From Candidatus Altiarchaeota archaeon (GTDB lineage Archaea; Altiarchaeota; Altiarchaeia; JAFGQM01): a stretch of 52,478 bases of DNA. This document shows, in pieces, positions 3,141 through 48,401 of this stretch. The position numbers and the translations under genes were made by a program. The stretch covers positions 1-52,478 of the forward strand of contig JBFYKJ010000056.1 in the NCBI GenBank assembly GCA_041306005.1, in the 5' to 3' direction. Position 1 is the first letter of the stretch. The number at the start of each line of letters is the position of its first letter. The notes beneath the pieces were generated by a model that was not told the DNA's origin, did no database searches, and saw only the letters and a list, made by a program, of their open reading frames with translations.

Positions 3141-3184
3141 CTTTGGTTTTCGCGTATAGGTCAAACAGGCGCGGCCTTGCTGGC

Positions 3185-15618: not shown

Positions 15619-16221
15619 TTAAACCATCCTCAGGAAATACTCGTGCACCCGCGTGTCGTTTGTGAGCTCCGGGTGGAATGCAGTCACTAAAACATTACCC
15701 TGCCTGGCCGCGACTATCCTGTCACTATACTTAGCTAGCACCTCAACGCCCTTTCCGACTGATTCGATCGCCGGCGCGCGGATGAATACCGCGTGGAACG
15801 GTCTTGCCGGATCCGAAAGCCCGTTAAACCCCAAATCGACAGAGAAGCTCTCCTTCTGCCGCCCGAATGCGTTGCGGTCGACGACGGCGTCCATCTTCCC
15901 GAGGAACTCCTGGCCAGTTTTTTCCGCGTCGCGCTTGCCGGCCGATGAGCCCTCCTTAGCTAAGAGTATCATCCCGGCGCAGGTGCCAAAGACGGGCTTC
16001 CGGTATTTTTCCAGTTCGTTGAACATGCCCGTTTTCCTAAGGAGCTTCCACATCGTCGTGGACTCGCCGCCGCTTATGATGAGGCCGTCGGTCCGGGCAA
16101 GCTCCTCCTTGTCGCGGACTATGGAGACACCACCCTTGATGCCGAGGCTCTCCATCGCAGCAATCGTCGCCGCGATGTGCTCTTCAAGGTTTCCCTGCAT
16201 CCCGAGGATTCCGATTATCAT
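15619..16221 (-). CDS. pdxT: Pyridoxal 5'-phosphate synthase glutaminase subunit PdxT
   Basis: MIIGILGMQGNLEEH, GGESTT, GTCAGMILLA, FHPELT. Start at ATG 16221. The N-terminal 83 codons of the track ORF are rejected. Confidence 0.9.
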   Translation of the reverse strand: MIIGILGMQGNLEEHIAATIAAMESLGIKGGVSIVRDKEELARTDGLIISGGESTTMWKLLRKTGMFNELEKYRKPVFGTCAGMILLAKEGSSAGKRDAEKTGQEFLGKMDAVVDRNAFGRQKESFSVDLGFNGLSDPARPFHAVFIRAPAIESVGKGVEVLAKYSDRIVAARQGNVLVTAFHPELTNDTRVHEYFLRMV

Positions 16222-16255
16222 CGGTGTTTTTTCCCGCTCACCCGAAAAAAATAGG

Positions 16256-16825
16256 ATGGTCGCCAAGAAACCCGGCGGGAAGGGCAGGGGGCACAGGATA
16301 AAGCCCATCATCGTGGAGATGGGCACCGGCCCGGAGCTCGCACGGGCGCGCTGGCTGCAAAAGCAGTTCAAGAGGGCGAAGATAATCGCGTTCGACGTGC
16401 GGGCTCCGAAAAAGCCCGTGCCGAATGGAATAAAGTTCGTCAAGGGCAAAGCCGTCCAGAAACTTAACAAGATGCCGAAGGCCTCGGTGAGCAGGGTCTA
16501 CGCCGACAATTATTTCTCCAACGAGGCCGGGGTCCTGGGGAAAGAGGGCATGGCGATAAGGCCAAAGACCCTCGGCGCGATAAAGAGGGCGCTAAAGGAC
16601 GGCGGGGAGTTTCACGTCACGACGCCCGCGTTCCACGGGAGGCTCCTTGCGAAAAAGCTGGCTGAGAGCGGGTTTGTGATAACCAAGAGGCGGCCGGTCC
16701 GGAAGGGCGACTTCATGAGCCCGATGGTAAAGGAGGATTTTGAAGAGCTTTCCCGGGGCGAGCACCGCAAGGCAGGGAAGGGGATATGGCCGTACCGGGT
16801 GGTGGCGGTGAGGGTGAGAGAGTAG
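16256..16825 (+). CDS. Putative class I SAM-dependent methyltransferase-like protein
   Basis: Motif-I-like IIVEMGTGPE, an acidic AFDV, and a post-motif LKDGGEFHV. ATG 16256 lies only 34 nt from the divergent pdxT start. The track ORF start at 15653 runs antisense to pdxT and is rejected. Confidence 0.5.
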   Translation: MVAKKPGGKGRGHRIKPIIVEMGTGPELARARWLQKQFKRAKIIAFDVRAPKKPVPNGIKFVKGKAVQKLNKMPKASVSRVYADNYFSNEAGVLGKEGMAIRPKTLGAIKRALKDGGEFHVTTPAFHGRLLAKKLAESGFVITKRRPVRKGDFMSPMVKEDFEELSRGEHRKAGKGIWPYRVVAVRVRE

Positions 16826-16852
16826 GCGCTTTGCGAATCGTATAGCAGACCC

Positions 16853-17086
16853 TCAAGCCCCCTTTATCGCGTTCAAGAACTCCTCGACATCTATCCCAAT
16901 GTCCTTCTTTATTATCTTGTTAAGGAGGCTGCGGTCGATGTCCTCGCCGCCGTGGACGGGCACGATAGTCGTCCTGCCATCGGGATGCTCCAAGAAGACA
17001 TGGCTCCCCTTTTGCCGAATCGCCGCAAACCCCAGTTTTGAAAGCGCTGCGATGACTTCCTTCCCCGACATCTGAGGCAGCTTCAT
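16853..17086 (-). CDS. hicA: HicA-family mRNA interferase toxin
   Basis: 77 aa, reading MSGKEVIAALSKLGFAAIRQKGSHVFLEHPDGRTTIVPVHGGEDI (YcfA/HicA fold with the GSH motif). The ATG lies 1 nt after the hicB stop. Confidence 0.85.
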   Translation of the reverse strand: MKLPQMSGKEVIAALSKLGFAAIRQKGSHVFLEHPDGRTTIVPVHGGEDIDRSLLNKIIKKDIGIDVEEFLNAIKGA

Positions 17087-17087
17087 C

Positions 17088-22277: not shown

Positions 22278-22577
22278 ATGGCAAAGGAAGGCACCGACTG
22301 GGAGTACGAAGTCGCGTACAAGATACTCGACCTCTATGTGAAGGAGCTGACCGAGAGGAAAGACAAGAGGATGCTCGACATCGAGGGCCTTGTCGAATCC
22401 TATTTCTACATCCTCGGCCGCCTCAAGGTAGGCTCTCACGAGGTCGACCAGATAGTAAAGGCTGTGCGCGACGATTTGCGCAAAAACCCGGAGGGCCCCG
22501 CCGATAGCGGGCTCAGGGACGCAGTCGGCAAGAAGAAGATGAGCGCCGGTTTGCTGAAGGCGTTAGAGGGCATGTGA
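22278..22577 (+). CDS. Hypothetical helical protein
   Basis: 99-aa ORF with coding-like composition. No family recognised. Confidence 0.45.
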   Translation: MAKEGTDWEYEVAYKILDLYVKELTERKDKRMLDIEGLVESYFYILGRLKVGSHEVDQIVKAVRDDLRKNPEGPADSGLRDAVGKKKMSAGLLKALEGM

Positions 22578-22641: not shown

Positions 22642-25600
22642 CTACATCACGCCCATGCACGCCTCGTCCCAGGTGCATTTCTCGGTGTGGAGTTCGAAGT
22701 GGTCTTTGCAGTTGCCCTGCAAGAAAGGCTTCCCGCTCAGTTCGCACACCACACTGCTGCAAACATCGTATTTCCATCGGCAGTAGTTGCAGTGGTGCTT
22801 ATCGCCGTCGGAGTCACACTCCCCGCCGGTGCCCTTGCCCACAGAGAACCATCCCTCTACGCAAACATCGTATTTACCGCAACTGCGGTCCACGCCCAGC
22901 GGGCCGGTGTTCCCGGCCGCCAGCTTCCAGATGAAGCCGCCCCCGGGTTCCCCGGGGTACCCGGCCCCCTGGTGGTAGTTGAACAAACAGGTCCACTCCT
23001 CGGTGGGGCACGCCTTTATCATGCCCCAGTCCTCGTCCCCGTCGCACATGGCGTACAGCTCGCTGGCGTTGTACCAGCCGTATTCAAGCTCCGACGCCGA
23101 TGTGTCGGGCCCTTCAGAGCTAGACCCGCCGGTGCCCTTGCCGCGCTCCTCCGCCGTGCCGTAGAATGCCCGCTCCCCTATGCCCCGGCAGTAGAGGAAA
23201 TCGTCGGTGCCGACGAGCCCGTCCTCGTCGTACACCCTGTCGCACGGGAAATTCTCATCGCAGGTGCAGTCCTCATCTTTCTCCCCGTTGCAGTTGTTGT
23301 CCAGGCCGTCGTGGCATATCTCCAGCCCGTAGCGGCTTAAGTTCTGCATCTCCACATAGCAATACGGGCAGAACTGGGCTATGCCCCCCTCGTTGTCTTT
23401 CGCCAGGGCGTCTATGCAAAGGTAGTCGTCCTCGGTCAGCGCGCCGTCCTGCGTCACGTCGGCGCATTCTAAGACCGCATCCTGCTCAACTCTATCGTTC
23501 AGTATCCAGCCCTCTATCAGCACGTCACTCGCGGTGATGGCGCCGTCCTGCGTCAGGTCGCCGGGCGTGCCGTTGCAGCCGAATCCGTAGACTACGAGGC
23601 ACGCAACCGGTATCGCCGAGCTGCCGGCGATGGCCTGCAGGCACTGCAAATCGGCCGAATCCAGCGCCCCGCTCCCGTCAAAGTCCGTCACGTTGAGCAA
23701 AGCCGGGTGCGGGTCAACGCCGAATCCGGCCGCGCCCACGATTCTCCCCATGACGGCGACGTCTGTCTGGCCTATGCCTTCGTCGTCGTCCAGGTCACCG
23801 GGCTCGCCCAGCGAGATGTTGAAGCAAAAGCCGCCGTTCATCCGCCGGGAGCAGTCCGTCGCCCCCGTGTCCCCAAGCCACTTGGTGGCCACTACGTTCA
23901 CCAGGCAGGCCTCGTCGTCAATATCGACGTCCCCGTCGTTGTCCATGTCGCCGCAGCCCGCATACTCGTTCCGCTCGACCTGCGACGGCACCTTCTTGAA
24001 GAAATCGCCGAAAAGGCTTATGTCATAAGACGCGGCGACGCAGTCATCGTTCCAGTCCCCGCGGCCGGCGTCCGGTTCCAAACAGTGCATTATGTCCTGG
24101 CCGCCGCTAAGGGTCATGCCGCTCCTTATGCAGGATATTATCTCGGCCTCGGCATACGTCTTCTTGCCACGGTAGTCATACACGCACTGCCTGGCCATCG
24201 GCCGGTCCTCGCAATCCCCAACCTCGCATTCAGATGCCCTTGCCTTTGACGTGTCGACGACGAATATCTCCAGCTCCGCGAGCCCGGACGCCCCGAGCAG
24301 GAGCCCTATCTTGTATACGCCCTCGTGGGGCGGGGCGAACAGCGCGACCGTGTATGTCCGCAGGCGCTGATCCCATGCGAGCGCAGACGTCTGCCCGTAC
24401 AAGACCGCCTTTATATTGGCAAGGCCCTCCACGTCCTTCTCGCCCTGCTTGACCCTCACATTCACGGTGAACGTCTCCTTGGGCTCCAGTATCTTCGGGC
24501 TCGCGCTCTGCTCGGAGGTGACGCCCGGGCGCGACAGCTCGGTGTCAAAGGAGATGGTGAAATTCTGCTCGTATATGACGCCCCCCTCTATCCTCTTGAG
24601 GTATATCTCCGCCCGGTGGCCGCCCGGGTAGGGGGTGTTCACGATGACCGTATAGTTCCCGCCTGAACCTGTGAGCTTGGGCCGTTCCGGCAGCCAGATC
24701 CCGCCATCAAGATAGTAAACCCCGACGTCGCTGGCGGTCGGCGAGTCCAGCGGCGTGCCGTTGAAGAGGATGCTCATGCCTATCTCGATGGGCGGCGTTT
24801 CGTCCATTATCGCATAGGGGGTGAGCTCGAAGTAGCTGTTGCTCACGGGCATGACGTTAACCCCCACTACTTTCATGCCCTTCCTGCCGTCATATAGCGC
24901 CAAGACCGCCAGGTCGTAGGTGCCGGGCGCATCGGGCGCTGCGCACGATGCCTTCCATACGCCCCCCGAGATCGCCGCCCCGCACGGCTGACCCGCCAGC
25001 TCGAAGCTGACGTTGGACTGCTGCGTCACGTCGGTCTGCCCGTAGAGGATCCTTGAGACGCTCGCCGCGAAGGGCCTCCCGGCGGCGGCCGGGTTCGGGA
25101 ACGTCAGCGCGCCGAATGTGAAGTTGTATTCCGGCGGCTCGGGAGGCTGCAGCGTGATTGTTACGGACTTGTTCTCGCCCGGGCCCGCGCTGTACTGCTT
25201 GGACCTGTAGTTTGAATACGCCTCCAGGTTCGATACGGTGAAATAGAAGGGCTTTGACGCCCCGACCGGCACGAACTCGGTGTAGCCGGAGGGTGCCGGG
25301 AGGAGCGCGCCCCCATACCCCGAGCCGTATACCTTAGTGCCGTTGGCCGTCCAAAGCTCCACCGTGGCGTTGGCGGTCAGAATCCTGCCGGCCTTGTCCA
25401 ACACCCTTGCCCTCGCGTTGCCAATCTGCGCGCCGCAAGTGACTTTTAGGTTTAGCGTGTTGGGCCCCGCATCCAGGGCAATGCTTGCACTGGCGCCCAC
25501 ACAGCCCGTTTCGAGCGCTGAGGCGAAAACGGTCGCGCCGGCCGAGAGCTGGAACTCGGCGCATCCGACCGAAAGCGGCTTTTGCCCCAGCTGCTCGCCG

Positions 25601-26478
25601 ATAAGGGAGTGCACCCTGGCCGAGCCGTTGACGGGCTTGCCGCCCTGGTCCCGGACGCACACGCTCAGCACTGCAGGCTCCGGCGCCGAAGCGCGCATCT
25701 GTACTAGTAGTTCCCTTTCCTCGCCAAAACCCAGCATGGTCGGGCTCGCCCTGCCGTCGTACTGCCCATAGCCCGCCGCATCGGCGATGACCGCATACCA
25801 GTTGCCCGAATCAAGGGAGAACGAGCCCATTCCCGCTATCGGCTTGGCGGCGGCTATCGTGTGCGCATTGCCGTTGGGTATCACGACGGTGACGTTTGCC
25901 CTGATGAAAGACCCGGCTTCATCCCTGACTGTGAGCCTCAGGGTGCCCTTGGGGGTCTGCGGCTTGTCGAAGAAATCGGCCGGCAGGCTCACCGGGATCG
26001 TCACGGTGCCCGCGTCAAGGGGGTACGGGTCCGATACTGCCGTCTTCCCGTTCAACGGGTTCCTGACGGCGGCGGTCACGCTGTGGCCGGATATGCCGCC
26101 GAAGGTGAACTCGCTCTTCTTTCCCTCAGAAGAGCATATCTGCCCGCCGTCCGCATCGTTGAGGCTGACAAATAGCGAAGCTGGGACCTGGCCGGCTATT
26201 TTCACCACAACGGTCTTTAGATTTTCCGAAGGGGGGCAATCCGCCAGGCACGACAACGAGGTCTCGGGGGCATCGCATGCGCCGTCGCCGCACAGCGGTT
26301 CGGCCTCAGATGCCGCCGGGCCGCTTGGCCAAAGAAGGATGACCGATATTATTAACAGCGCGAGTATGCCCAATGGAAACAATATCGCGGGTATGCGGTG
26401 CTCGTCAAAAAAGCCGTCAAGGCGGGCGGCTTCCAGGGCGCGCCATGAAAAGTCGTCCAGCTTCCCGAATGGGGGCAT
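22642..26478 (-). CDS. Giant membrane-anchored, Cys-rich surface protein with three dockerin-like modules (paralog A)
   Basis: 1278 aa. N-terminal cytoplasmic motif LDDFSWRALEAARLDGFFDEHRIP, followed by one TM. CGDGACD...CLADC module at 26236-26292. A long beta-rich region of about 650 aa. Six DxDxDG-type Ca-loop segments at 23398-24063. MopE-like ICHDGLDNNCNGEKDEDC near 23255-23325. Cys-rich C-terminus. Confidence 0.85.
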   Translation of the reverse strand: MPPFGKLDDFSWRALEAARLDGFFDEHRIPAILFPLGILALLIISVILLWPSGPAASEAEPLCGDGACDAPETSLSCLADCPPSENLKTVVVKIAGQVPASLFVSLNDADGGQICSSEGKKSEFTFGGISGHSVTAAVRNPLNGKTAVSDPYPLDAGTVTIPVSLPADFFDKPQTPKGTLRLTVRDEAGSFIRANVTVVIPNGNAHTIAAAKPIAGMGSFSLDSGNWYAVIADAAGYGQYDGRASPTMLGFGEERELLVQMRASAPEPAVLSVCVRDQGGKPVNGSARVHSLIGEQLGQKPLSVGCAEFQLSAGATVFASALETGCVGASASIALDAGPNTLNLKVTCGAQIGNARARVLDKAGRILTANATVELWTANGTKVYGSGYGGALLPAPSGYTEFVPVGASKPFYFTVSNLEAYSNYRSKQYSAGPGENKSVTITLQPPEPPEYNFTFGALTFPNPAAAGRPFAASVSRILYGQTDVTQQSNVSFELAGQPCGAAISGGVWKASCAAPDAPGTYDLAVLALYDGRKGMKVVGVNVMPVSNSYFELTPYAIMDETPPIEIGMSILFNGTPLDSPTASDVGVYYLDGGIWLPERPKLTGSGGNYTVIVNTPYPGGHRAEIYLKRIEGGVIYEQNFTISFDTELSRPGVTSEQSASPKILEPKETFTVNVRVKQGEKDVEGLANIKAVLYGQTSALAWDQRLRTYTVALFAPPHEGVYKIGLLLGASGLAELEIFVVDTSKARASECEVGDCEDRPMARQCVYDYRGKKTYAEAEIISCIRSGMTLSGGQDIMHCLEPDAGRGDWNDDCVAASYDISLFGDFFKKVPSQVERNEYAGCGDMDNDGDVDIDDEACLVNVVATKWLGDTGATDCSRRMNGGFCFNISLGEPGDLDDDEGIGQTDVAVMGRIVGAAGFGVDPHPALLNVTDFDGSGALDSADLQCLQAIAGSSAIPVACLVVYGFGCNGTPGDLTQDGAITASDVLIEGWILNDRVEQDAVLECADVTQDGALTEDDYLCIDALAKDNEGGIAQFCPYCYVEMQNLSRYGLEICHDGLDNNCNGEKDEDCTCDENFPCDRVYDEDGLVGTDDFLYCRGIGERAFYGTAEERGKGTGGSSSEGPDTSASELEYGWYNASELYAMCDGDEDWGMIKACPTEEWTCLFNYHQGAGYPGEPGGGFIWKLAAGNTGPLGVDRSCGKYDVCVEGWFSVGKGTGGECDSDGDKHHCNYCRWKYDVCSSVVCELSGKPFLQGNCKDHFELHTEKCTWDEACMGVM

Positions 26479-26546
26479 GGGGAATTAAATGGAGGTGCAT
26501 TAAAAAGGGCTAATGGCTAATGCCTTGCCGCGGCACGACAATCCCG

Positions 26547-29500
26547 TCATCCCGACGCGTGGTCCGAGTACCTGGTCCTGCCGGTGAGTATGTGCCATAC
26601 TACACGGTAGTCGTCCTCGTACCTCGTCCCGTAGTCCATGTGTATCAACGGCCTCTGCGACTGGTCGGCGCCCGAAAACTCGACTATGAGGTAGCAAGTG
26701 CCGTAGTGGCCGCCCTTCATGGAAAAGCCGTATGAATGGGTGTTTTGTATGGAGCCGCCCCTGTCATCCCCCTCCTCGATGACGTACAGGCCGTCGGGGT
26801 CCTTCGCGAGATAGACGCGCGAGATGCCTTTTGCATCGTACCCCTCGGGTATGTAGACCGCAAGCAGGTGGGTGCTGGCAGACTCCGGCTTCCAGAGGAG
26901 GTACAGCTCGTAGCGGTTGTCAAAAGTCCCTTCCCCGGACTCCAGGCCGCCAAGGCTGCCCATGCACAGGCCCTCGGCCGGGCAGACCTCGGATTCGCCG
27001 CCCTCGCCATCGTCGCAGCCGCCCATGCCCCCGCCGCTCGGCCCGCACTCTTCCTTCTGGCATACGTCGAATTCGAAGCGGCAGTAGCGGCATTTTTTCT
27101 CATAGATGAGCTTGCAGTTCGAGCCTGAAGATGTGCCCACCGAGTTCCACCCGGTATGGCAGTCCGGCGCGTCGTGGCAGTCGTATGTCGCGCCCAGGGG
27201 GCCTATGTTCCCCTCCGCGCTCATCCACCTAAAGCCCTTCATGTCGTTTATCTCCGATGCGCTTGTCGTCCCGCCGCCCTCTTCTCCGCCGCCCTCGTTG
27301 TTCTCTATCCAGTCTTCCGTATTCCCCGAATTGTGCGAGAAGCCCGGCAGGAAGTTGAAGAGGCACGTCCATTCCCCGCCCCCGCAGTACATTATGTTGC
27401 CCCAGCCCTCCTCGCTGCACATGCCGTCGACGTCGTCTATCGGGTTCCAGTCAAAGCCGCCCTCGGGCTCATCATCCTCGTCTTCCTCTTCGTCCTCGGT
27501 CGCCCCCGCCGCCCACTGGCTGAAGTCCCGCTCCCCGAAAGCCGTGCATACGGCGAAATCGTTCGTCTCCGGCAGGCCGTCGATGTCGTAGAGTTTTGAG
27601 CACGACTGCCCGTCGTCGCAGGTGCAGTTCTCGTCCGTATATCCGTTGCAGTCGTTGTCAAGGCCGTCGTGGCATATCTCCTGCCCGTAGCGGCCGAGGG
27701 CCTGCAGGTCCCGCGCGCAGATGCCGCAGAACGGGGAAGTGAGCGTTATATCGCCATTTATGGTACCGTCCATGCAGAAGTAGTCCTCATCGTCGACGAC
27801 CGCATCATTGTTCATGTCGGCGCACTTGAACACGGTCGTTGAATCGACCCTGTGGTTGACTATCCAGCCTTCTATCATGAAGTCCGTGTCGTCTATCTCC
27901 CAGTCCCGCGTGAGGTCGCCGGGGGCGTATGTCCCGTTCGGGTAATCTGGCCCCGGGCCGGGCTTTGTCGCGCAGCCGAAGTCGTAGATGGCAAGGCATG
28001 AAATCGCTATGTTCTTCCCATTCACTATGCTGTCAAGGCAGTCGTAATCCTTTATATCCACATTGCCGCTCATGTCAAAGTCGGTGATGTTGAGCAGGAA
28101 CTCGTCGGGCGTGACGCCGTAGCCTGCAATGCGGACGACGTCCCCCATTATCCCGAGGTCCGCGGCGTCCATGTTGCCGCTGCCGTCAAGGTCCCCGGGC
28201 TCGCCCACGCTTATGTTGAAGCAGAAGCCGCCCCGCATCGAGCTTGCGCAGTCCTCGTCGCCGTAGTCGCCGAACCACTTGGTGGAGAGGATGTTGGTTA
28301 TGCAGTCATAGTCATCCTCGTCGGCGTCACCGTCGTTGTCCATGTCCCCGCAGTAGCGGTACTCGTTGCGCTCCTCCTGCGAGGGTATCTTGGTGAAGAA
28401 GTCGTTCATCAGGCCGAGATCCGAAGAGGTCAGCATGCAGTCCGTGTCCCAGTCGCCGCGGCGGGCGGAGGCCGACAAACAGTGGGTCACGTCCTGCGAG
28501 CGTATCATCAGGCCAGTGCGTATGCAGGTCACCACGTCGCTCTCGGAGTAGGACTTCTTCGAGTCGTACTCCGCGACGCACTCCCTCACCATCGGCCGGT
28601 CGACGCACTTCTTTATGTCGCAGTCGTCCGCGCGGCTCTTGCCGGTGTCGACGACGAATATCTCAGTGTAAGCTATCCGCTCCTGCTCTATGTAGAACTC
28701 CAGCTTGTAGATGCTCTCGTATTCGGGGGCCTTAAGCGAGACCGCGTAAGCCTTCTGCGCCGAGTCCCACGGCATCGATTTCGTGGTTTCGGCAAGCCCT
28801 ACCTTTAGGTTGGCAAGGCCCTCGATAGCCTTCCCGCCCTGGGTTATCCTCAGGTAGGCGGTGAAACTCTCTTCCGGCTCGAGTATGCGCGGGCTCGCGC
28901 TCACCTCGGTCGATACGGCAACCTGCGACGGCTGGGAGTCGAAGGTGATGGTGAAATTCTGCTCATACACAGCATCGCCCACCGTCTTCATCAGGTATAT
29001 CTCCGCCCGGTGGTCGCCGGGGAAAGGCGTGTTTGCGGCGATCGTGTACAATCCGTCGGCGCCCTTGAGGGCGGGCTTGTCCAAAGCCCATATCTTGCCC
29101 GGCACGTAGTATATGCCGACGGAGCTCGCATCGGGCGCGGCCAGCGGGGTCCCGTTGAAGGTTATGTCCATCTCGATGTCTATCGGCGGCTGGACGTCGA
29201 GGATAGCGTGCGGGACCAGCTCAAAGTAGCTGGACGCGCCAACCGCGAATACCTTGACCTGCTGGGTCTTGCTGCCCGCCCTGCCGCTGTAAAGCGCGTT
29301 GACCGCGAGATCGTAGTCCCCGGCCAAATCGGGGGCCTGGCACTCGGCGGTCCACACCGAGCCCTTAGACACTGCGCATGGCTGGGCGGCGAACTCCACC
29401 GTGACGTTGGCTAAGGAAGTCACGTCCGTCTGGCCGTAGAGGACGCGCGATACGGTCACCTTAAATGTGTCAAGGGCGACTACGGGGCTTGGATAAGCGA

Positions 29501-30890
29501 TGCCGCTGAACGAGAAGTTGTACACCGGGGGTTCAGGTATGGGGAGGTCGAGGGTGACCGTCTTGTTGGCGCCGGGATTTACGCCGTACTTCGACGAGGT
29601 GAATGCCGAGTAGCCGGCGACCCCGGTCACGGTGAAGTAGACCTTCTTTGACGAGTCGGCGGCGACGTACTCGGTGTACCCGGTTGGCGCCGCCAGGAGC
29701 GAGCCGCCAAAGCCCGATCCGCTTATCTTCCGGCCGTCCGACGAGAAAGCCGTGACAGTGGCCTGGCGGGTCACGTCGGTCTCGTTGGCCGTGACCTTCA
29801 CCCTCACCTGCCCGACCTGCGGGCCGCACGTCAAATTCAGGCTGACAGCATTCGAGCCGGGGGCGAGCGCCACCTCTTTCGCGGCGCTTGAGCATCCGGG
29901 TGAGTCAAAAGACACCTCCACCCTCGCACCCGACAGTAGGCTGAACTGCGCGCAGCCGGATATCAGGGGCGCCGTGCCGAGCGAGTCGCCGCTCAGCGAC
30001 GATACGCCGACGCTGCCCTCGAGCGCGCTGCCCGCGGAGTATGCGCATGCCCTGAGCGAGGCCTGAACGGGCGCGGGCACCAGCGGGTCCATCTGCGCAA
30101 TGATCTCCCTCTGCGCGCCCTGCTCGACGTTTATCGGGCTCTTCCTGCTGTCATACTGGGCATAGCCCTCGGCGTCGACGATTATCGCATACCACTTGCC
30201 GGCGTCGACTGTGAAGAAATCACTGCCCGGCACCGACTTCGTGCTGACTATCGTGTGGGATGAGCCGCTTGGTATCACAAGGGTGACCTTTCCGGTGACC
30301 GAAAAGCCGGATTCTGCATCCTTGAGCGTCACGCGGACAACGCCCTTGGGGATCGCTGTCTGCTCGAAGAATCCCGACGGCATTGCGACAGTTATCTCCG
30401 TTTCCTTGCCTTCAAGCGATATCAGGTCCGACTGCGCAGCCTTGCTGTTCTTCGGGTTTGACACCACCGCGCGGGCGCTGTCGCCGGACAGGCCCGAAAA
30501 TGTGAACGAGCTCTTCTTCCCGCTGGAAGCGGCAAGCCGGACACCCTCGGCATCCTCGATGCGGACGTCGATGCTGGCATCCACCTGCCCGAATATCAAG
30601 ACCTTTACTGTCTTGAGGTCGCCCTCCTTCTTCGCGCAGTCCTCGGGGCAGGATATCAAATCCTCGTCCCTCGCGGGCTCGCACGCCCCGTCGCCGCAGA
30701 ATATCTCGGCCTGGGGGGCGCCCGGCGGCCCGGAGGGCTGGGATATGAGCAGGAGCACCGCTACAAGCAGGATTATTATGGCGAGGGGCAGCACCAAGGC
30801 GGGTATCCTATACTGCTCAAACACGCCGTCGAGGCGCGTCTTCTCGACAAGCGTCCACGAGAAGCCGTCAAGCGACTCCTTAAGAGGCAT
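26547..30890 (-). CDS. Giant membrane-anchored, Cys-rich surface protein with three dockerin-like modules (paralog B, extended C-terminus)
   Basis: Collinear with paralog A: MPLKESLDGFSWTLVEKTRLDGVFEQYRIP plus a TM, CGDGACE...CPEDC at 30636-30698, dockerin-like segments at 27753-28460, and ICHDGLDNDCNGYTDENC. It additionally has an acidic tract (EDEEEDEDDE) and an extra C-terminal domain of about 150 aa. ATG 30890 is chosen by homology to paralog A; the track start is 30941. Confidence 0.85.
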   Translation of the reverse strand: MPLKESLDGFSWTLVEKTRLDGVFEQYRIPALVLPLAIIILLVAVLLLISQPSGPPGAPQAEIFCGDGACEPARDEDLISCPEDCAKKEGDLKTVKVLIFGQVDASIDVRIEDAEGVRLAASSGKKSSFTFSGLSGDSARAVVSNPKNSKAAQSDLISLEGKETEITVAMPSGFFEQTAIPKGVVRVTLKDAESGFSVTGKVTLVIPSGSSHTIVSTKSVPGSDFFTVDAGKWYAIIVDAEGYAQYDSRKSPINVEQGAQREIIAQMDPLVPAPVQASLRACAYSAGSALEGSVGVSSLSGDSLGTAPLISGCAQFSLLSGARVEVSFDSPGCSSAAKEVALAPGSNAVSLNLTCGPQVGQVRVKVTANETDVTRQATVTAFSSDGRKISGSGFGGSLLAAPTGYTEYVAADSSKKVYFTVTGVAGYSAFTSSKYGVNPGANKTVTLDLPIPEPPVYNFSFSGIAYPSPVVALDTFKVTVSRVLYGQTDVTSLANVTVEFAAQPCAVSKGSVWTAECQAPDLAGDYDLAVNALYSGRAGSKTQQVKVFAVGASSYFELVPHAILDVQPPIDIEMDITFNGTPLAAPDASSVGIYYVPGKIWALDKPALKGADGLYTIAANTPFPGDHRAEIYLMKTVGDAVYEQNFTITFDSQPSQVAVSTEVSASPRILEPEESFTAYLRITQGGKAIEGLANLKVGLAETTKSMPWDSAQKAYAVSLKAPEYESIYKLEFYIEQERIAYTEIFVVDTGKSRADDCDIKKCVDRPMVRECVAEYDSKKSYSESDVVTCIRTGLMIRSQDVTHCLSASARRGDWDTDCMLTSSDLGLMNDFFTKIPSQEERNEYRYCGDMDNDGDADEDDYDCITNILSTKWFGDYGDEDCASSMRGGFCFNISVGEPGDLDGSGNMDAADLGIMGDVVRIAGYGVTPDEFLLNITDFDMSGNVDIKDYDCLDSIVNGKNIAISCLAIYDFGCATKPGPGPDYPNGTYAPGDLTRDWEIDDTDFMIEGWIVNHRVDSTTVFKCADMNNDAVVDDEDYFCMDGTINGDITLTSPFCGICARDLQALGRYGQEICHDGLDNDCNGYTDENCTCDDGQSCSKLYDIDGLPETNDFAVCTAFGERDFSQWAAGATEDEEEDEDDEPEGGFDWNPIDDVDGMCSEEGWGNIMYCGGGEWTCLFNFLPGFSHNSGNTEDWIENNEGGGEEGGGTTSASEINDMKGFRWMSAEGNIGPLGATYDCHDAPDCHTGWNSVGTSSGSNCKLIYEKKCRYCRFEFDVCQKEECGPSGGGMGGCDDGEGGESEVCPAEGLCMGSLGGLESGEGTFDNRYELYLLWKPESASTHLLAVYIPEGYDAKGISRVYLAKDPDGLYVIEEGDDRGGSIQNTHSYGFSMKGGHYGTCYLIVEFSGADQSQRPLIHMDYGTRYEDDYRVVWHILTGRTRYSDHASG

Positions 30891-30936
30891 AAGGAGATTA
30901 ATGCCGGGGGGAATAAAAGCCTGTATATCATAAATG

Positions 30937-30977
30937 CCCATATGGAAGAAAATCCCATATGGAAGAAAAGCCCATAT
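30937..30977. repeat. 17-bp tandem repeat, about 2.4 copies (CCCATATGGAAGAAAAK)
   Basis: Units at 30937-30953 and 30954-30970, with a partial unit at 30971-30977. Located 47-87 nt upstream of the preferred start of giant paralog B. Confidence 0.85.
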
Positions 30978-30982
30978 AACTT

Positions 30983-31032
30983 AACTATGCTGGGGAGATC
31001 GCACAATAACTATGCCGGGGGGATCGCACAAC
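30983..31032. repeat. 25-bp tandem repeat, 2 copies (AACTATGCYGGGGRGATCGCACAAY)
   Basis: Units at 30983-31007 and 31008-31032, with 3 mismatches. Located between the peptidase stop and giant paralog B. Confidence 0.85.
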
Positions 31033-31070: not shown

Positions 31071-31955
31071 TCACACCGCCCACATCAGTATGGCGGACCA
31101 GAAGGGGGATATCGCTATCGCGAGCGGGAACGCGGGGGCGAACCTTATGCCCCACTTTATCCGGATCTTCTTTGGCAGCTGCTTGCGCGAGGCGCGTATG
31201 GCCTTTATGGCCTCTTTGGTCAGACCGTCCATGTCCCTGCTGCTGGCCAGCTTCTTGCCGCGGATGACGAGGTCTTCGGCCACAAGGTCGCCCTCGCGCA
31301 GCTCTTTAACGGTGACTTCCCTTTGCATGGCTATCTCCTCTACGCTCCTCGTGAATGCCAGGAGGGGGTAATATATCGCCGGCAGGGCAAGTGCCAGCAT
31401 CATCACATAGCTGTGGGGCTTTGCCATTATGAACAGCGAAACGGCTATGACGACGCCCAGTACGGCTATGAACCAGTTCTTCCGGACCCTGCCGCCGAAG
31501 AGGGAGAATACCTTCATATGCGTTACGGCAAGTATGAATGCGTAGGTCAGGGAGTATGGGATCGCGATCACCGAGAGGGCGACGAAGAACCCGAAGAACG
31601 CTGGGAATATCGCCGCTGAGCCCATTATGGACGGGGCCGCAATCCCGCCGAGCGCGGCGCCTATGCCCGCTATCAGCTTGGCATCGCCCCCGCCCCAGCC
31701 GCCGGTGTAGAAGAGGAGCGCGCCAAATGCGAAGAATATTGCTGCCACTGCCGCGCCGTCAAGGAAATAAACATAATCCCCCAGCATCACCGAGAACGCC
31801 GCCCGCATAGCGAGCGCGGCTGCCACAAGCCCTATGCTGAACTTGTCCGGTATCTCGCCGGTCTTCAGGTCGAAATATGACGCCACGACCGAGAAGCCCA
31901 TGGCTGTGGAGAGCATGAACAGGTTCGCAGTCGGGATGTCGATCATCGGGGCCAT
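31071..31955 (-). CDS. A24-family prepilin/preflagellin-type aspartic peptidase
   Basis: Polytopic membrane protein with the two catalytic Asp motifs YFDLKTGEIPD and GGWGGGDAKLIAGIG. It also has a soluble insert and C-terminal TM helices, as in archaeal FlaK/PibD-type enzymes. Confidence 0.8.
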   Translation of the reverse strand: MAPMIDIPTANLFMLSTAMGFSVVASYFDLKTGEIPDKFSIGLVAAALAMRAAFSVMLGDYVYFLDGAAVAAIFFAFGALLFYTGGWGGGDAKLIAGIGAALGGIAAPSIMGSAAIFPAFFGFFVALSVIAIPYSLTYAFILAVTHMKVFSLFGGRVRKNWFIAVLGVVIAVSLFIMAKPHSYVMMLALALPAIYYPLLAFTRSVEEIAMQREVTVKELREGDLVAEDLVIRGKKLASSRDMDGLTKEAIKAIRASRKQLPKKIRIKWGIRFAPAFPLAIAISPFWSAILMWAV

Positions 31956-31997: not shown

Positions 31998-32360
31998 TTA
32001 TCTGTAAACTTCAGTCTTCACCCCAGCCTTCTTCGCGGCGTCGGCGAACCACGCCTGCTTGCCGGATATGTAAAGCACGGTCTTTGTCTTCTTGGCGACA
32101 ACAAGCTCGCACGCCTGGCCCTCACTTATCGTCAGCTCGTACAAAAGCTTGGCCGCCGCCGAGAGCTCCTGTTCATTAAGCTTCACAGGGGTCAAAAACG
32201 GTTCCGGCGCGGCGAATGCCACATATATAAGCCCCTTGCCGGGCGCAATGCGGTCCTTAACCGGGTAAAGCGCGTTTGCGGCCTTCTGCTGGTCATAGAG
32301 CCCGCGGCTCATGGACGCTTTCCTCGGCTTTCCCCCGCCGCCGAAAAGGAATACGAACAT
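31998..32360 (-). CDS. Hypothetical protein
   Basis: 120-aa ORF immediately upstream of, and co-directional with, the peptidase gene. No family recognised. An alternative start is M17 at 32312. Confidence 0.45.
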   Translation of the reverse strand: MFVFLFGGGGKPRKASMSRGLYDQQKAANALYPVKDRIAPGKGLIYVAFAAPEPFLTPVKLNEQELSAAAKLLYELTISEGQACELVVAKKTKTVLYISGKQAWFADAAKKAGVKTEVYR

Positions 32361-32465: not shown

Positions 32466-33041
32466 TCACCGCCTGCGCTTCTTTTTCACCGCCGCGAAGC
32501 CCGAAACCCCCGCGAGCTCGGCCGGCGCGGAAGAGCCAAGGCCCGCCGCTATCCTGAGCTTCACCCTCTCGCCTTTGGCGACCGCCATGCCGCGCGGGTT
32601 TGAGACCGCATAATCCGCCTCCCTAACCCTCGAGAATAGGTCGTTTTTCACGTGCACGCCGACCCATCCCTTAGTCGAGAAGAGGACAGTCCCGTAGCAA
32701 TACCGCCGGCCCACGAAGTACTTGAGGGCGATTGTCATCAGTATTATCACCATCACAAGGCCAAATACCGTGTACATCGAGCCGAAGTCCATTGCTGAGA
32801 GCGGGACGGACTTTATGACCAGTATCAGCACCAGGAAGACCGCTTCATATGCGATGAAGACGAATGCGTACTTCTTCCAGTCCTCCGGGTAGTCGCGGGC
32901 GAACTCGCCCCGGGCTATCGGGAATTGGAGCAGGAACAGGGCCGCCGCGGGGATGAGGAGCAGCGGCTCCAGCAGGAACGCGAATGTTATCAGGAAGAGA
33001 AATGCAGTCATCAGCACCTGGAGCTTTGCAAGCGAGTTCAT
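32466..33041 (-). CDS. Integral membrane protein with a C-terminal soluble beta-rich domain (DUF2101-like by eye)
   Basis: Start at ATG 33041 (MNSLAKLQVLMTAF). About 4 TM, then GRRYCYGTVLFSTKGWVGVHVKNDL...GERVKLRI. The N-terminal 87 codons of the track ORF are rejected. Confidence 0.55.
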   Translation of the reverse strand: MNSLAKLQVLMTAFLFLITFAFLLEPLLLIPAAALFLLQFPIARGEFARDYPEDWKKYAFVFIAYEAVFLVLILVIKSVPLSAMDFGSMYTVFGLVMVIILMTIALKYFVGRRYCYGTVLFSTKGWVGVHVKNDLFSRVREADYAVSNPRGMAVAKGERVKLRIAAGLGSSAPAELAGVSGFAAVKKKRRR

Positions 33042-33152
33042 GCGGATAATAACGAGGCCGGAATAAAAAACACCGCGCGGGGCGGGGCAGCCCCCGCAAG
33101 GGCTCTCTGCCGGCCGGGCCCCGCTTTTAACCCCCAAGAGGGAAAAATACCT

Positions 33153-33752
33153 GTGGAAACTGAGAGCATTCCCGATATTGCGCGAGAAGCGGGGCAGGAT
33201 GCCGAGCATCAAACGCCCAGCCAGGGCGCCGGCCAGCAGGCGCCTGAGCATGGCGGGCACCACGCCCCCGGGCACGGCGCCGGAGAGCAGGCGCCGGGGC
33301 ACGAGGGCGCAGGCAGCCTCGCGCCGCAGGAGACCAAACGGCTTGTGGAAGCAATCGAGGCGGGCATCAGGGATGGCAGGACCCTTGAGTCCCTAAAGAA
33401 GGCCATGGAGGATGTCGGGTACAAAGAGGCCGAGATAAGGGGGATAGTGTCAAAGGTCGACAGGGCGAAGACCATAAGGAGGGCGTCGAGGAAAAAGAAG
33501 CCCCGGCACAACACCGGCTGGATAGCGGCAGGGGTTGCAACACTCGCGGTGGTAATACTCGTATCGTACATAGCAGTCATCGAGCCCTCGCAGAGGCCGC
33601 AAGGCATTGAGGGCGGGATATTCGAGGAAGCCGGCCTCACCAAGAACACGACTGCGGGCAGGATATGCTACGTCATTAACGAGAGCATCAAGCAGAAGAT
33701 GATAGACTCGGGGGCCGAGTGCGACAAGTGGTTCCTGATCAAGGAGATATAA
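33153..33752 (+). CDS. Hypothetical single-pass membrane protein with a His/Gly/Ala/Pro/Gln-rich N-terminus
   Basis: There is no ATG before residue M of AMEDV. GTG 33153 or GTG 33345 are possible starts. It contains a helical LESLKKAMEDVGYKEAEIRGIV segment, one TM (WIAAGVATLAVVILVSYIAVI) and an extracytoplasmic tail with 2 Cys. Confidence 0.45.
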   Translation: METESIPDIAREAGQDAEHQTPSQGAGQQAPEHGGHHAPGHGAGEQAPGHEGAGSLAPQETKRLVEAIEAGIRDGRTLESLKKAMEDVGYKEAEIRGIVSKVDRAKTIRRASRKKKPRHNTGWIAAGVATLAVVILVSYIAVIEPSQRPQGIEGGIFEEAGLTKNTTAGRICYVINESIKQKMIDSGAECDKWFLIKEI

Positions 33753-42288: not shown

Positions 42289-43017
42289 ATGGCGCCTACG
42301 ACTAAACGTATAGAGTCCAAGATTATAGAGCCCAAAGTAAAGAGGCGGGCTTGGAAGATCCCGGCCCATGAGATATCGCTGGTAAGCCTGCCCGCGCCGG
42401 CATCAGAGGACTATGTCGCCCCCGAGGCGACGGATGAAAAGCACCGCCCGTTGAAGGGGGCGGTAAGGGATGTCATCAGGCCATTTACGGGTATAGACTT
42501 AAAGGGCAAGGACAGCCTGGTCCTGTGGACCGGGAGGGACCCCAGCCAGGTCGCATTGCCCCTCATCCACAACAAGCAAGGGCCCCTGCAAAGCAGGGTG
42601 CACGGGCTTATAGAGTTCAGGCTTGCGGATACGCCCGACGGCAAGCGCATCAACCTCATCGGTTATACGGACATCTCCAGAAGGGGGTCCGGCGTCCTAA
42701 TGCTCCCAAGGGCGGTCAACAGCATAGCAGAGATGTATGAGCAGCTTGGCACCGCCAGGCCGCACGAGGAAACGCCCCACCTCAAGACCAGCGTTTCGGG
42801 GGGCTCGCAGGCCAAACAGATAATCATCCGCCCAAACCAGTCGATAATCGTCCCAGGGATGGCGGAGGAGACCTTGAGGGACAAGCACCTGTTTTTCGAA
42901 GAGTACGTCGGAAGGGACGGAAAAAAACGGATGGGCATAAGGGACGAGCATAAGCAGTGGTATCCGGCGTGGATGGTCTTTGCGCCCAAAGAGTACAAGC
43001 AAAAAGAGCGCCGCTAA
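42289..43017 (+). CDS. Hypothetical protein
   Basis: 242-aa ORF with coding-like composition. No family recognised. Confidence 0.5.
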   Translation: MAPTTKRIESKIIEPKVKRRAWKIPAHEISLVSLPAPASEDYVAPEATDEKHRPLKGAVRDVIRPFTGIDLKGKDSLVLWTGRDPSQVALPLIHNKQGPLQSRVHGLIEFRLADTPDGKRINLIGYTDISRRGSGVLMLPRAVNSIAEMYEQLGTARPHEETPHLKTSVSGGSQAKQIIIRPNQSIIVPGMAEETLRDKHLFFEEYVGRDGKKRMGIRDEHKQWYPAWMVFAPKEYKQKERR

Positions 43018-47800: not shown

Positions 47801-48401
47801 TAAACCTACCATGCATGGTGCAGTCATGCACCGAGCGGGTGATGAGCGCCCGCTTCTTTTCCTTGGCAAGCGCCCCGAGGCGCGCTGCCATTTCCGGCTC
47901 GAAGAAGGCTATGAAATCCCGGGACTCTGCGAGCTTTAGCAGGAAAAGCTCCTTGAAGCGCGCCAGGCTGATTTGCGGGGGCTGGACCCTGGCAGGGACT
48001 AAGATGAAGTCCCCGGTCTTGAGAGAATCGGCGCGCACCTTTGTTATCATCCCGTCCCCGCCCATCGAGAAGAACGGGTGCTCGGGGGTCACTTTTACCC
48101 TGGAGCCGTGCCTTGTCGCGACCTCGACGACCTTATCGGCCTTCAGCCTCCAGATGTGGCTCGCCTTCCTGGCCGATATGGCGCCCGTCTCGTCAAGCGA
48201 GAGGAGTTTTATATCAGCGCCCGAGAGGTCCAGGATGTCGCCGCGCCCGTCGGGGACGCGGGGCATCTTGGTGGAGAGCTCGTCGTAGATGCCCTTTATC
48301 GGCCTGATGCTCCCGTTTGCCAGGGCTATCTCAGTGTCGCCGGTGACGCACTTCCCGTGGTCAACGTGCCCGAGCACGGAAATGATAGGCTGACGGATCA
48401 T
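44802..48401 (-). CDS. infB: Translation initiation factor aIF5B (IF2-like GTPase) interrupted by an intein in the P-loop
   Basis: Exteins: MIRQPIISVLGHVDHGK | TSFLDKIRESSVAAREAGGITQHIGATEVP, DTPGHEAFTNLRKRGG, ANKIDL. The mature length would be 588 aa. Confidence 0.93.
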   Translation of the reverse strand: MIRQPIISVLGHVDHGKCVTGDTEIALANGSIRPIKGIYDELSTKMPRVPDGRGDILDLSGADIKLLSLDETGAISARKASHIWRLKADKVVEVATRHGSRVKVTPEHPFFSMGGDGMITKVRADSLKTGDFILVPARVQPPQISLARFKELFLLKLAESRDFIAFFEPEMAARLGALAKEKKRALITRSVHDCTMHGRFRAADAVALARGKIPPQKLYDSITAIKYSTTKQRASHRGSLISLPKTEEQFKDAFYAMGALWGDGTRGNAILSNTDGDLIAEYGRAMMSAFGTGIRITPQRTTNSVANTGNKTFGELLCQVFAYPRRDKSRTMTIPDLVLRSPNPFLSAFISGYFDTDGYVSKSTGVEVLSMSGDMIRKLAIALQRFGCPSVVSSSRGGYRLKISGSEYLCNFSESIGFRLARKQACLDSMHKKATTSRIFDLLPIPGSKVRELRVSFGLSGMETEIPYQKAYEKYPFVSRAYLRSFIKSLQKRVLGKGYKGTMRERLSALKALERPLTYSALYKRLPVPHKRLLNHLTFLSSEGLLAKAESRFMLTAKGLSLLPGLESAARYPVLVFNHAGRLHGIVNSDFVCTRVAGAREIRGECNVYDFTQPETHNFIADRCIIHNTSFLDKIRESSVAAREAGGITQHIGATEVPIDVIKNLCGKQLEAMNVDVTIPGLLFIDTPGHEAFTNLRKRGGSIADLAVLVVDIREGFMPQTIEALEILKNYKTPFIVVANKIDLLSGWHNTGEYCFIKAVKQQQDFVRKEVEQKLYELVGRLSEMNISSERFDRVGDFTKQVCIVPVSAKTGEGIAEAMMLLTGLSQKYLEKNLQIEVKGPGKASILEVKEEKGLGTSLDLILYDGTIKRGDTVVMSGKDGPVETKVKALLKPKPLDEMRDPRDKFDNIASISAASGLKLVGPGVENALPGGQVYVVEGADPKKAEELKAIIRKELESVRFDHENVGLVVRSDSLGSLEAILGMFKKLGIPVRKADIGAVSKTDIMEAESMRKQNPEYGIVIAFNAPVAEDLLQYAETAKVKLLANKIIFKIIEDYGEWVKDVKRQQEMAIFDTIPFPAEIKFLEGCTFRRSDPAIIGVAVIKGRIREGYPLMKEDGTRVGTVKSIQDKTDKLDEAKKGMEVAVAIDGPLVGRNIVEGDILFTHITFNEYETILKKGKKFMNKEDEELLKKLVQLSREK
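46518..48350 (-). mobile_element. 611-aa intein with LAGLIDADG homing-endonuclease domain inserted after GHVDHGK
   Basis: Block A CVTGDTEIAL (Cys1 codon 48348-48350). Block B VKVTPEHPFF. LAGLIDADG motifs FYAMGALWGDGT and FISGYFDTDGYV. Blocks F/G NVYDFTQPETHNFIADRCIIHN (Asn codon 46518-46520), followed by the +1 Thr. Confidence 0.9.

Follow-up and report, generated by a model that had tools for sequence, protein, structure and literature searches.

Among archaea, the adhesin-like proteins (ALPs) of Methanobrevibacter smithii and Methanosphaera stadtmanae are large, occur as many paralogues and in most cases possess a single N-terminal transmembrane (TM) segment, with most of the chain lying outside (PMC11532034). 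Among bacteria, fibrillar adhesins join a stalk to an adhesive head (Monzon et al., PMC8286594, PMC9210967). The subject of this report is a tandem pair of genes, designated A and B, located in 52,478 nucleotides (nt) of DNA from a Candidatus Altiarchaeota archaeon (assembly GCA_041306005.1, contig JBFYKJ010000056.1, positions 1 to 52,478). This whole stretch is referred to as the window. The products of the two genes are read here as type-II-anchored, fibrillar-adhesin-like surface stalks, a reading to which a probability of roughly 0.5 is attached.

The family to which A and B belong resembles the ALPs in being archaeal, long and multi-paralogous, in having an N-terminal TM segment, in combining immunoglobulin (Ig)-like repeats with variable extra domains, and in having a function that is inferred. 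The ALPs differ in their repeats, which are of the right-handed beta-helix and 'ABD' Ig-like types, and in being rich in Asn and Thr instead of Cys, and the word dockerin is absent from their description (PMC11532034). Four elements that characterise A and B, namely a conserved N-terminal box, a CGDGxC module, a triple dockerin and a MopE-like motif, are not reported for ALPs in the same source. No sequence homology of A or B to the ALPs was detected by Pfam or NCBIfam.

With the bacterial fibrillar adhesins, A and B have in common a distal head carried by a cell-anchored stalk in which beta-sandwich domains repeat, and both groups evolve fast and shuffle domains. The fibrillar adhesins, however, are bacterial, are held by LPXTG, type I secretion system (T1SS) or type V secretion system (T5SS) anchors, and carry adhesive domains of known families. 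In A and B the head is instead composed of three dockerins and a Cys-rich domain, and a predicted N-terminal signal-anchor follows a cytoplasmic box.

Type I dockerins have been described in archaeal extracellular proteins unconnected to cellulose degradation, in Archaeoglobus fulgidus and in anaerobic methanotrophic archaea (ANME), where they are thought to act as protein-protein linkers at the surface (PMC9012536, with Peer et al. 2009 cited there). The ANME proteins are either scaffoldin-like, with one dockerin and up to five cohesins, or dockerin-bearing substrate-binding proteins (PMC9012536). A and B differ from both in having three consecutive dockerins, no cohesin and an N-anchored Ig stalk. 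Compared by description only, two other archaeal surface structures, the hamus of Ca. Altiarchaeum and S-layers of the tetrabrachion type, likewise consist of long beta-rich or stalk-like proteins with a functional part held out at the distal end. The stalk of tetrabrachion is a coiled coil. The hamus subunit (97 kDa) has a Sec signal peptide, its N-terminus is S-layer-like, and no dockerin has been reported in it (PMC4460559).

Architecture and family of the A and B proteins

The two genes follow one another on the same strand:

22642 to 26478, minus strand: gene A, encoding a putative N-terminally anchored surface protein of 1278 amino acids (aa), with its stop codon at 22642 to 22644 (open reading frame (ORF) list; family member P0001).
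26547 to 30890, minus strand: gene B, encoding a 1447-aa paralogue of A; the frame is open to an upstream ATG at 30941, which would give 1464 aa (ORF list; family member P0002).

An initial annotation of this DNA, made from the sequence alone, had described two consecutive, collinear minus-strand paralogues of 1278 and about 1447 aa that make up about 16% of the window. This is borne out by the ORFs and by BLASTP, with A and B being 46% identical over ~1295 collinear residues (E=0) and covering 8249 of the 52,478 bases (15.7%). Between the two proteins 46 of 47 cysteines are aligned, and eight N-glycosylation sequons are common to the 15 of A and the 11 of B. The conserved N-terminal motif, the CGDGAC module and the CHDGLDN(N/D)CNG motif of the same annotation were all recovered by motif scan, as was the Cys-rich C-terminus of both proteins.

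It had recognised no characterised family for the overall architecture, and this holds across the libraries searched, since no Pfam, NCBIfam or PDB family spans the whole of A or B. NCBIfam gave no match, Pfam gave Dockerin_1 and sub-threshold matches, and PDB searches by sequence and by profile with full-length A, the A-type tail and the B extension returned only a weak dockerin match. An exhaustive HMMER search with an A/B profile over 1.84 billion representative proteins yielded 145 proteins at E<=1e-3 and 82 at E<=1e-30. About 40 of the 145 are full-length (1100-2026 aa) and have the same N-terminal box, TM segment, CGDGxC module, stalk, hinge and dockerins.

The modules themselves (dockerins and Ig-like sandwiches) and the anchor-stalk-head design are already known. 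The libraries and literature searched contain no description of the modules in this combination, of the N-terminal box, of a triple dockerin on an anchored stalk, of the membrane-proximal CGDGxC module or of the Cys-rich head.

N-terminal box, membrane anchor and topology

Four features make up the membrane-proximal part of the proteins:

26398 to 26478, minus strand: residues 1-27 of A, conserved and predicted cytoplasmic N-terminal box (consensus of 62 family members).
26329 to 26397, minus strand: residues 28-50 of A, single predicted TM signal-anchor (Kyte-Doolittle).
30735 to 30890, minus strand: residues 1-52 of B, N-terminal box and TM anchor (BLASTP to A, hydropathy and motif scan).
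26236 to 26292, minus strand: residues 63-81 of A, membrane-proximal four-Cys module CGDGAC...C...DC (motif scan; its C, G, D and C columns are invariant in the family alignment).

The box has no match in Pfam or NCBIfam. In its consensus across the 62 members, sLnD.sWdLLd.lhLgdFFDdHnIPPilFP, the W, FF, IPP and FP residues hardly vary. It is followed by the sole TM-length hydrophobic segment of each protein, at residues ~28-50 in A and ~28-52 in B (Kyte-Doolittle windows >1.6), in agreement with the single TM segment first annotated. The exception to this profile is a set of four marginal windows in A (maximum 1.74) at residues 945-950, inside the second dockerin. Lysine and arginine (K+R) amount to 2.0 per 20 aa before the helix against 0.23 after it, a bias that is present in 36 of 43 family members. 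All 41 full-length members bearing the box have an uncharged run of 21-32 aa at the N-terminal helix, and none of the 41 has a C-terminal TM segment. A type-II (N-in, C-out) signal-anchor, as initially proposed, is supported by these predicted features, that is, by a TM segment at the N-terminus only, the K+R bias before the helix and the lack of a C-terminal TM segment, together with the Cys-rich bulk of the chain and its conserved sequons.

An alternative to this topology is that the hydrophobic segment is a long cleavable signal peptide of the ESPR type and that the released proteins attach through their dockerins only. The conserved extension before the hydrophobic core recalls the ESPR of giant autotransporters (PMC2805444). 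The hydrophobic run gives way to small residues (PAA/SEA in A, APQA/E in B), and dockerins are the attachment modules of secreted proteins in cellulosomes. The length of the uncharged run argues against cleavage, as 21-32 aa in all 41 full-length members contrasts with 12-15 aa in most of the short family members that possess a signal peptide. In addition, members with the box have no other anchor, whereas at least some of the signal-peptide forms have a C-terminal TM segment, and no cohesin anchor was found. Cleavage and release of A and B are considered unlikely.

The four-Cys module recurs outside the pair. Two genes at 48498-50288 and 50341-52185, both on the minus strand, encode secreted GH5/GH42-like glycoside hydrolases in which an N-terminal hydrophobic segment is followed by a CGDG(A/S)C...C..DC module. 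Each of these GH5-like enzymes also has two to three C-terminal CGDG(T/I)CD..E....CP.DC repeats, for which RET_CRD is the only Pfam match. Because the same module lies beside the anchor of A and B and in these enzymes, CGDGxC looks like a general surface-protein module of the organism.

The stalk

The anchor is followed by a long beta-sandwich region in each protein:

24253 to 26220, minus strand: residues 87-742 of A, stalk of about seven beta-sandwich domains (80-95 aa each) of Ig-like, FN3-like or prealbumin-like type (AlphaFold2 and Foldseek).
28647 to 30698, minus strand: residues 65-748 of B, CGDGAC module and Ig-like stalk (collinear alignment to A).

Protein A was modelled with AlphaFold2 in two pieces, using family alignments made of exact substrings of relatives. 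The model of residues 58-745 (m0761e3ef2375, 17 sequences) is all-beta over ~690 aa, with a mean pLDDT of 84.3. The region had been annotated as beta-rich and repetitive. The first property stands, with about seven sandwiches in the model, but the second applies to the fold only, as BLASTP found no internal sequence repeats in A. Foldseek comparison of the stalk model to PDB returned generic multi-Ig chains, including contactin-2, DSCAM and the MG arrays of alpha-2-macroglobulin and C3, and also B. anthracis TIE, a Sap S-layer domain and the base of the GhpA grappling hook. At the sequence level there is a weak Pfam Fn3_arc match at residues 348-411 of B, and relatives show weak Fn3_arc and CarboxypepD_reg matches.

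Cohesin-like domains within the stalk were considered and rejected, as the domains measure 80-95 aa and no cohesin is present in the Foldseek top 50. Cohesins are about 140 aa in length.

The Sap match, which concerns an S-layer assembly domain of B. anthracis, bears on the main rival explanation. Under this explanation, A and B form the S-layer or canopy of the lineage, with N-terminal stalks that carry a distal lattice put together by Ca2+-dependent contacts between the dockerin/Cys-rich heads, in the manner of stalked S-layers such as tetrabrachion. This is possible, but it is held with low confidence. Typical archaeal S-layer proteins are glycosylated chains of Ig-like domains, and many depend on Ca2+. 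A and B are Ig chains with the sequons listed above and with Ca2+ modules. The window showed no other candidate for an S-layer protein. However, no S-layer family of Pfam or NCBIfam matches either protein, and an N-terminal anchor without a C-terminal hydrophobic segment departs from the usual combination of a Sec signal peptide with a C-terminal anchor (a TM segment or PGF-CTERM). Further evidence on both sides comes from the relatives described below.

The distal head

Beyond the stalk, the following features were delimited:

24064 to 24252, minus strand: residues 743-805 of A, helical Cys hinge (AlphaFold2 model mfe9a5be7cb1a, helices at pLDDT 86-94).
23389 to 24063, minus strand: residues 806-1030 of A, three dockerin modules at 806-866, 893-955 and 972-1030 (Pfam, AlphaFold2, Foldseek and Ca-loop residues).
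27747 to 28646, minus strand: residues 749-1048 of B, Cys hinge and three dockerin modules (42-65% identity per module to A; Ca-loop residues from the sequence).
23254 to 23325, minus strand: residues 1052-1075 of A, MopE-like CxDGxDNxCxG Cys motif (motif scan), containing a 19-mer common to B.
22645 to 23253, minus strand: residues 1076-1278 of A, Cys-rich beta tail (the 'A-type head'), kept in a subgroup of the family.
26961 to 27683, minus strand: residues 1070-1310 of B, MopE-like motif and A-type Cys-rich tail (BLASTP to A, motif scan and family alignment).
26550 to 26960, minus strand: residues 1311-1447 of B, additional C-terminal domain (~137 aa) that A lacks and the relative P0003 has.

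Four hinge cysteines, C751, C756, C765 and C783, are invariant among 49 family members. The Cys hinge and the three modules, described as dockerin-like at the outset, are upheld by Pfam, AlphaFold2 and Foldseek together. The AlphaFold2 model of residues 740-1278 of A (22 sequences) has a pLDDT of 85-97 up to about residue 1100 and low values beyond. With this model, Foldseek recovered dockerins only from PDB, the top match being the C. thermocellum double-dockerin 8x39 at a probability of 1.0, with single dockerins at TMt values of up to 0.83. Pfam Dockerin_1 (PF00404) scores 32.2 bits in A (residues 972-1021), above the cutoff of 22.9, and 27-66 bits in relatives. In B it reaches 10.8 bits only, and the B modules align to the dockerins of A at 42-61% identity. 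At the level of the model, the dockerin fold of the three modules is established. Each dockerin consists of two Ca-binding loop-helix segments. All six loops of A and all six of B have Asp at positions 1 and 12 and, as read from the sequence, Asp, Asn, Ser or Thr at positions 3 and 5. The modules are presumably loaded with Ca2+.

The dockerins raise a cellulosome-like alternative, in which A and B anchor an enzyme display, with cohesin-bearing partners binding to the triple dockerins and organising the nearby glycoside hydrolases. It draws on the dockerin fold itself and on the two GH5-like enzymes of the window, whose CGDGxC module is common with A and B. Archaeal dockerin-cohesin pairs have also been reported to bind specifically (cited in PMC9012536). 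The GH5-like enzymes, however, have neither dockerin nor cohesin, their genes lie 18 kb away, and they are unlinked to the arrays of family genes in other metagenome-assembled genomes (MAGs). No cohesin or scaffoldin was seen in the window or the related loci, the stalk domains of 80-95 aa are too small to be cohesins, and the polarity is reversed, with the dockerins on the anchored protein. An enzyme display of this kind is therefore judged improbable.

The MopE-like motif announced by the initial annotation is present, with C1055, D1060 and C1063 invariant in the family. Membership in the Pfam family is a different matter. Cu-binding_MopE (PF11617) scores 24.4 bits in A, under the cutoff of 27, gives no match in B at E<=1, and ranges over 17-25.5 bits in relatives. 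The resemblance to MopE is one of motif only (CxDGxDNDCDG). The tail of A that follows was modelled with a few strands at pLDDT 35-60. The ~137-aa extension of B has no Pfam or PDB match.

Distribution of the family and variation of its heads

Relatives were also sought by scans with DNA patterns, which gave seven loci in GTDB species genomes, all of them archaeal MAGs, and six loci in JGI metagenomes. No relatives were found on viral contigs by the same scan. Every family locus retrieved is an uncultured archaeal MAG or a metagenome contig. The family is rare and confined to one deep archaeal lineage.

Its genes mostly form tandem arrays of two to five members. Pairs are seen at the loci L002, L015 and L016, arrays of three at L001, L007 and L013, and an array of four or five at L003. 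The flanks of the arrays vary, with TrkH/TrkA in L001 and L003 and housekeeping genes in L005, and the paralogues within arrays are diverged (25-48% identity). Some genes in the arrays are broken by a stop or frameshift, as at L003 13047-15884 / 15888-17087 and L007 1-1089 / 1067-2197. These could be pseudogenes, products of phase variation or assembly errors.

The region past the MopE-like motif ranges from ~100 to 650 aa across the family. The head types found there are the A-type Cys-rich tail, a Hint/BIL-type domain, a LamG lectin domain, an unknown domain of ~380 aa and a weak DUF5648 match. Other, shorter proteins pair the N-terminal box, TM segment and CGDGxC module with different C-terminal parts. 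Such variability of the head fits a stalk that displays exchangeable binding heads.

The Hint/BIL heads follow the MopE-like motif and match Pfam AXH, Hint and PT-HINT, with the motifs CFPAGT, TxxH and HN. They occur at L001 7995-13214 and L003 7884-13046 and in P0006, P0016, P0024 and P0078. In P0016 the Hint domain ends the protein, while in others, such as P0006 and P0024, it is followed by the conserved ~380-aa domain, which starts with C(P/L)(F/Y)VYSxDG. The presence of a Hint/BIL domain suggests autoproteolytic release or modification of the distal head in these members.

Constant N-terminal parts, variable C-terminal parts, Hint domains in some members and gene arrays are also features of polymorphic toxins and of BIL-Hint variable surface proteins (Zhang et al. 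2012, PMC3482391). An explanation in these terms would make A and B agents of contact-dependent competition, with the stalk delivering a variable C-terminal effector that is freed by Hint autoproteolysis. The Hint, PT-HINT or BIL-type domain after the MopE motif of several relatives, the variable C-terminal regions and the tandem arrays are what can be said for it. Neither A nor B has a Hint or recognised toxin domain, and their tails are Cys-rich and extracellular-looking. There is no small immunity-like ORF after either gene. The gap between them is 68 nt, and the ORF beyond A is convergent and is a conserved syntenic gene. The recognisable variable heads of the family look like binding modules: one relative has LamG as its variable head, and the others matched no toxin or other Pfam family. 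A toxin function of the pair is very improbable.

A short subfamily of 740-1030 aa contains the distal core only, that is, two Ig domains, the hinge, three dockerins, the MopE-like motif and the Cys-rich domain. Its members have a Sec-type signal peptide, with a core of 12-15 residues in most, and a conserved AQ(V/I)PF motif. At least some end in a Gly/Ala-rich C-terminal membrane tail, which gives them the opposite anchoring polarity. Their genes also occur in tandem (L015 7920-10511 and 10552-13314), and further members include P0034, P0035, P0039-P0044, P0053 and P0056.

These relatives complete the evidence on the S-layer explanation. The conserved core is found in both membrane orientations, in the long N-anchored form and in the short signal-peptide form of which some have a C-terminal TM segment, and this fits a self-associating module. 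S-layers usually consist of one or two proteins. The arrays of two to five diverged paralogues with differing heads therefore argue against an S-layer by their copy number, and the site occupied by A and B is empty in some syntenic relatives.

Proposed function

The reading of A and B as anchored, fibrillar-adhesin-like stalks would operate as follows. The acidic/aromatic N-terminal box would stay in the cytoplasm while the chain is inserted N-in, with one helix anchoring it in the membrane. The four-Cys CGDGxC module would lie at the membrane surface. About seven Ig-like domains, at 3.5-4 nm each, would form a stalk roughly 25-30 nm long that holds a compact distal head away from the cell. 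This head would comprise the disulfide-braced helical hinge, three Ca2+-loaded dockerins, the MopE-like motif and the Cys-rich beta domain, to which B adds its C-terminal domain. It may bind a partner, which could be a cohesin-like protein, the surface of another cell or a polymer. Tandem paralogues and exchangeable C-terminal heads across the family would diversify what is bound.

Both elements of the adhesin class that concern the shaft of the protein are present, namely a cell anchor (the N-terminal TM segment) and a beta-sandwich stalk (about seven domains at pLDDT 84). In the position of the head, A and B have three dockerins and a Cys-rich domain, and one relative has a LamG lectin domain there. 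Exposure at the surface is probable from this design. As the initial annotation had done, we infer an adhesin or scaffold function, and with it the binding of a ligand.

Several points weigh against this reading, apart from the cleavable signal peptide discussed above. No cohesin was found by Pfam among the ~40 ORFs of the window or among the called genes of the related loci L008-L021. The heads of A and B lack any recognised adhesive domain. Model confidence is low over the Cys-rich tail, and a profile search returned no PDB relative of the A-type tail. Dockerin-like modules outside cellulosomes may also be purely structural, Ca2+-stabilised units.

A bolder reading, which is doubtful, joins two proposals. 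In it, the N-terminal box is a new sorting or insertion signal for very large archaeal surface proteins, and the arrays are head-swapping recognition cassettes. The box could be read by dedicated machinery, by analogy with the ESPR or YSIRK signals of bacteria. A constant stalk and triple-dockerin platform could then show swappable heads (Cys-rich, lectin, Hint-processed or enzyme-like), which could serve self/non-self recognition or partner capture. In the Hint-bearing members the head could perhaps be covalently attached via a thioester intermediate.

Under the anchored-stalk reading preferred here, the family is a well-delimited candidate for how this archaeal lineage builds its surface and attaches to partners or substrates. 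It would extend the non-cellulosomal dockerins of archaea to a new architecture, that of dockerins on an anchored stalk. The testable parts include the N-terminal box as a possible targeting signal, the triple-dockerin head as an expressible bait, and the natural series of head variants. The significance is moderate, as the anchor-stalk-head principle is familiar from the adhesin-like proteins of methanogens and the fibrillar adhesins of bacteria.

Origin and expression of the pair

Near-identity of A and B at the DNA level, an early observation on this locus, is real but restricted. The 19-mer GCCGTCGTGGCATATCTCC is present exactly twice, at 23305 and 27663, against a chance expectation of 0. 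Outside the stretches that code for motifs such similarity is absent, and within them it amounts to exact matches of up to 20 nt and to 99 nt at 82%. Recent gene conversion between A and B was considered and rejected, since no exact DNA match exceeds 19-20 nt and protein identity varies little from domain to domain (37-65%). For the same reasons the pair is read as an old duplication without sign of recent gene conversion.

Recent horizontal transfer was likewise rejected. The GC content at third codon positions (GC3) of A and B is 0.81-0.82, within the range of 0.70-0.84 in host genes, and codon usage is thus native. The higher overall GC of the two genes arises from their amino-acid composition.

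The database sequence of B (P0002) has 1464 aa and thus starts at 30941. The internal ATG at 30890 begins MPLKESLDGFSW, and A begins MPPFGKLDDFSW. Position 30890 is the likelier start of B, because MPLKESLDGFSW parallels MPPFGKLDDFSW of A and the N-terminal consensus of the family and because an AT-rich, TATA-like element is found ~40 nt upstream of this start. Two features precede the genes:

26499 to 26506, minus strand: TATA-like AT-rich element TTTTTAAT, 21-28 nt upstream of the ATG of A (sequence read only).
30910 to 31031, minus strand: upstream region of B, with the TATA-like element TTTATGATATA (~30925-30935) within four 17-nt and two 25-nt tandem direct repeats.

From the first of these, A may have its own promoter and a transcript that is leaderless or has a short leader. 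The repeats occupy the 130 nt upstream of B and overlap the TATA-like element. The 17-nt units are GGAAGAAAA.CCCATAT-like, and the 25-nt units are TAACTATGC.GGGG.GATCGCACAA. They are candidate binding sites of a regulator and may have a regulatory role.

Genomic context

The window is an ordinary archaeal chromosomal region. It contains an exosome operon, SBDS, proteasome alpha, FEN1, HMG-CoA reductase, the PolD small subunit and IlvD, as well as Elp3, TrpFCD, HerA, aIF2-gamma, S6e and an intein-containing aIF5B. This gene context settles the archaeal host that had been proposed. Scans for tRNAs and with Rfam returned nothing in the window. The aIF2-gamma protein has ~30 relatives at 63-78% identity, and its nearest named relatives, at 56-60%, belong to Ca. 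Altiarchaeota, Hydrothermarchaeales, Hadarchaeota, Methanocaldococcus and Methanofastidiosum, with Altiarchaeota and Hadarchaeota at about 57-60%. The PDB ranking is consistent with a euryarchaeal-grade lineage.

The pair lies in a conserved gene order, which runs aIF5B-S6e-aIF2g-HTH-...-trpD-trpC-trpF-x-DUF2101-120 aa-Peptidase_A24, then a variable site, then a small convergent gene-dCMP deaminase-kinase. B and A occupy the site in the window. Its only occupant in L008 and L009 (76% aIF2g) is a 76-aa lipoprotein-like gene. The site is empty in L017 (74% aIF2g), and L018 and L019 have an unrelated gene there on the opposite strand. The MAG of L017, CAZINR01, has family arrays elsewhere (L001, L007). 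L020 and L021 (71% aIF2g), which like L004 come from the MAG CAYMNU01, have two family genes after an A24 peptidase orthologous to that of the window (59% identity). One encodes a short member of 606 aa and the other a full member of 1446 aa, the first 362 residues of which are 35% identical to B. As the content of the site differs among lineages while the backbone is kept, the A/B pair is an accessory block in a conserved backbone, with the family at this site in two of the five lineages inspected, the window included.

The Peptidase_A24 gene (31071-31955, minus strand) lies directly upstream of B, together with 31998-32360 and 32466-33302, also on the minus strand. The cluster of DUF2101, the 120-aa gene and A24 is present in all five related lineages inspected. 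Family genes follow A24 in the window and in L020/L021 and do not in L008, L017 and L018.

A class III (type IV pilin-like) signal peptide cut by this adjacent peptidase was considered and rejected. Such a peptide has a short basic N-terminus and a [KR][GA] site. Before the helix the family has instead ~27 conserved acidic/aromatic residues that end in H-[N/G]-IPP, or in HR-IPA in A and YR-IPA in B. This absence of the motif, together with the retention of the peptidase gene with or without family genes, is the basis of the rejection. A looser link between the family and Peptidase_A24 is possible; their adjacency recurs in a second lineage.

Convergent with A on the plus strand is a 99-aa ORF (22278-22577). 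It has syntenic orthologues of 105-109 aa (L008 19705-20022, L017 15527-15856) and no Pfam match. Elsewhere in the window, a 567-aa cytoplasmic-looking protein is encoded at 43020-44723 (minus strand), between the ORF at 42289-43017 and aIF5B, and has no significant Pfam match. At 2280-3188 (minus strand), within an archaeal housekeeping region, there is an LpxC-family (UDP-3-O-acyl-GlcNAc deacetylase-like) protein scoring 83 bits, which is unusual for an archaeon. The aIF5B/IF-2 gene (44802-48401, minus strand; 1199 aa) contains a LAGLIDADG intein, which is kept in the orthologues of L008 and L017 (1198-1200 aa) and absent from those of L018 and L020 (584-591 aa).

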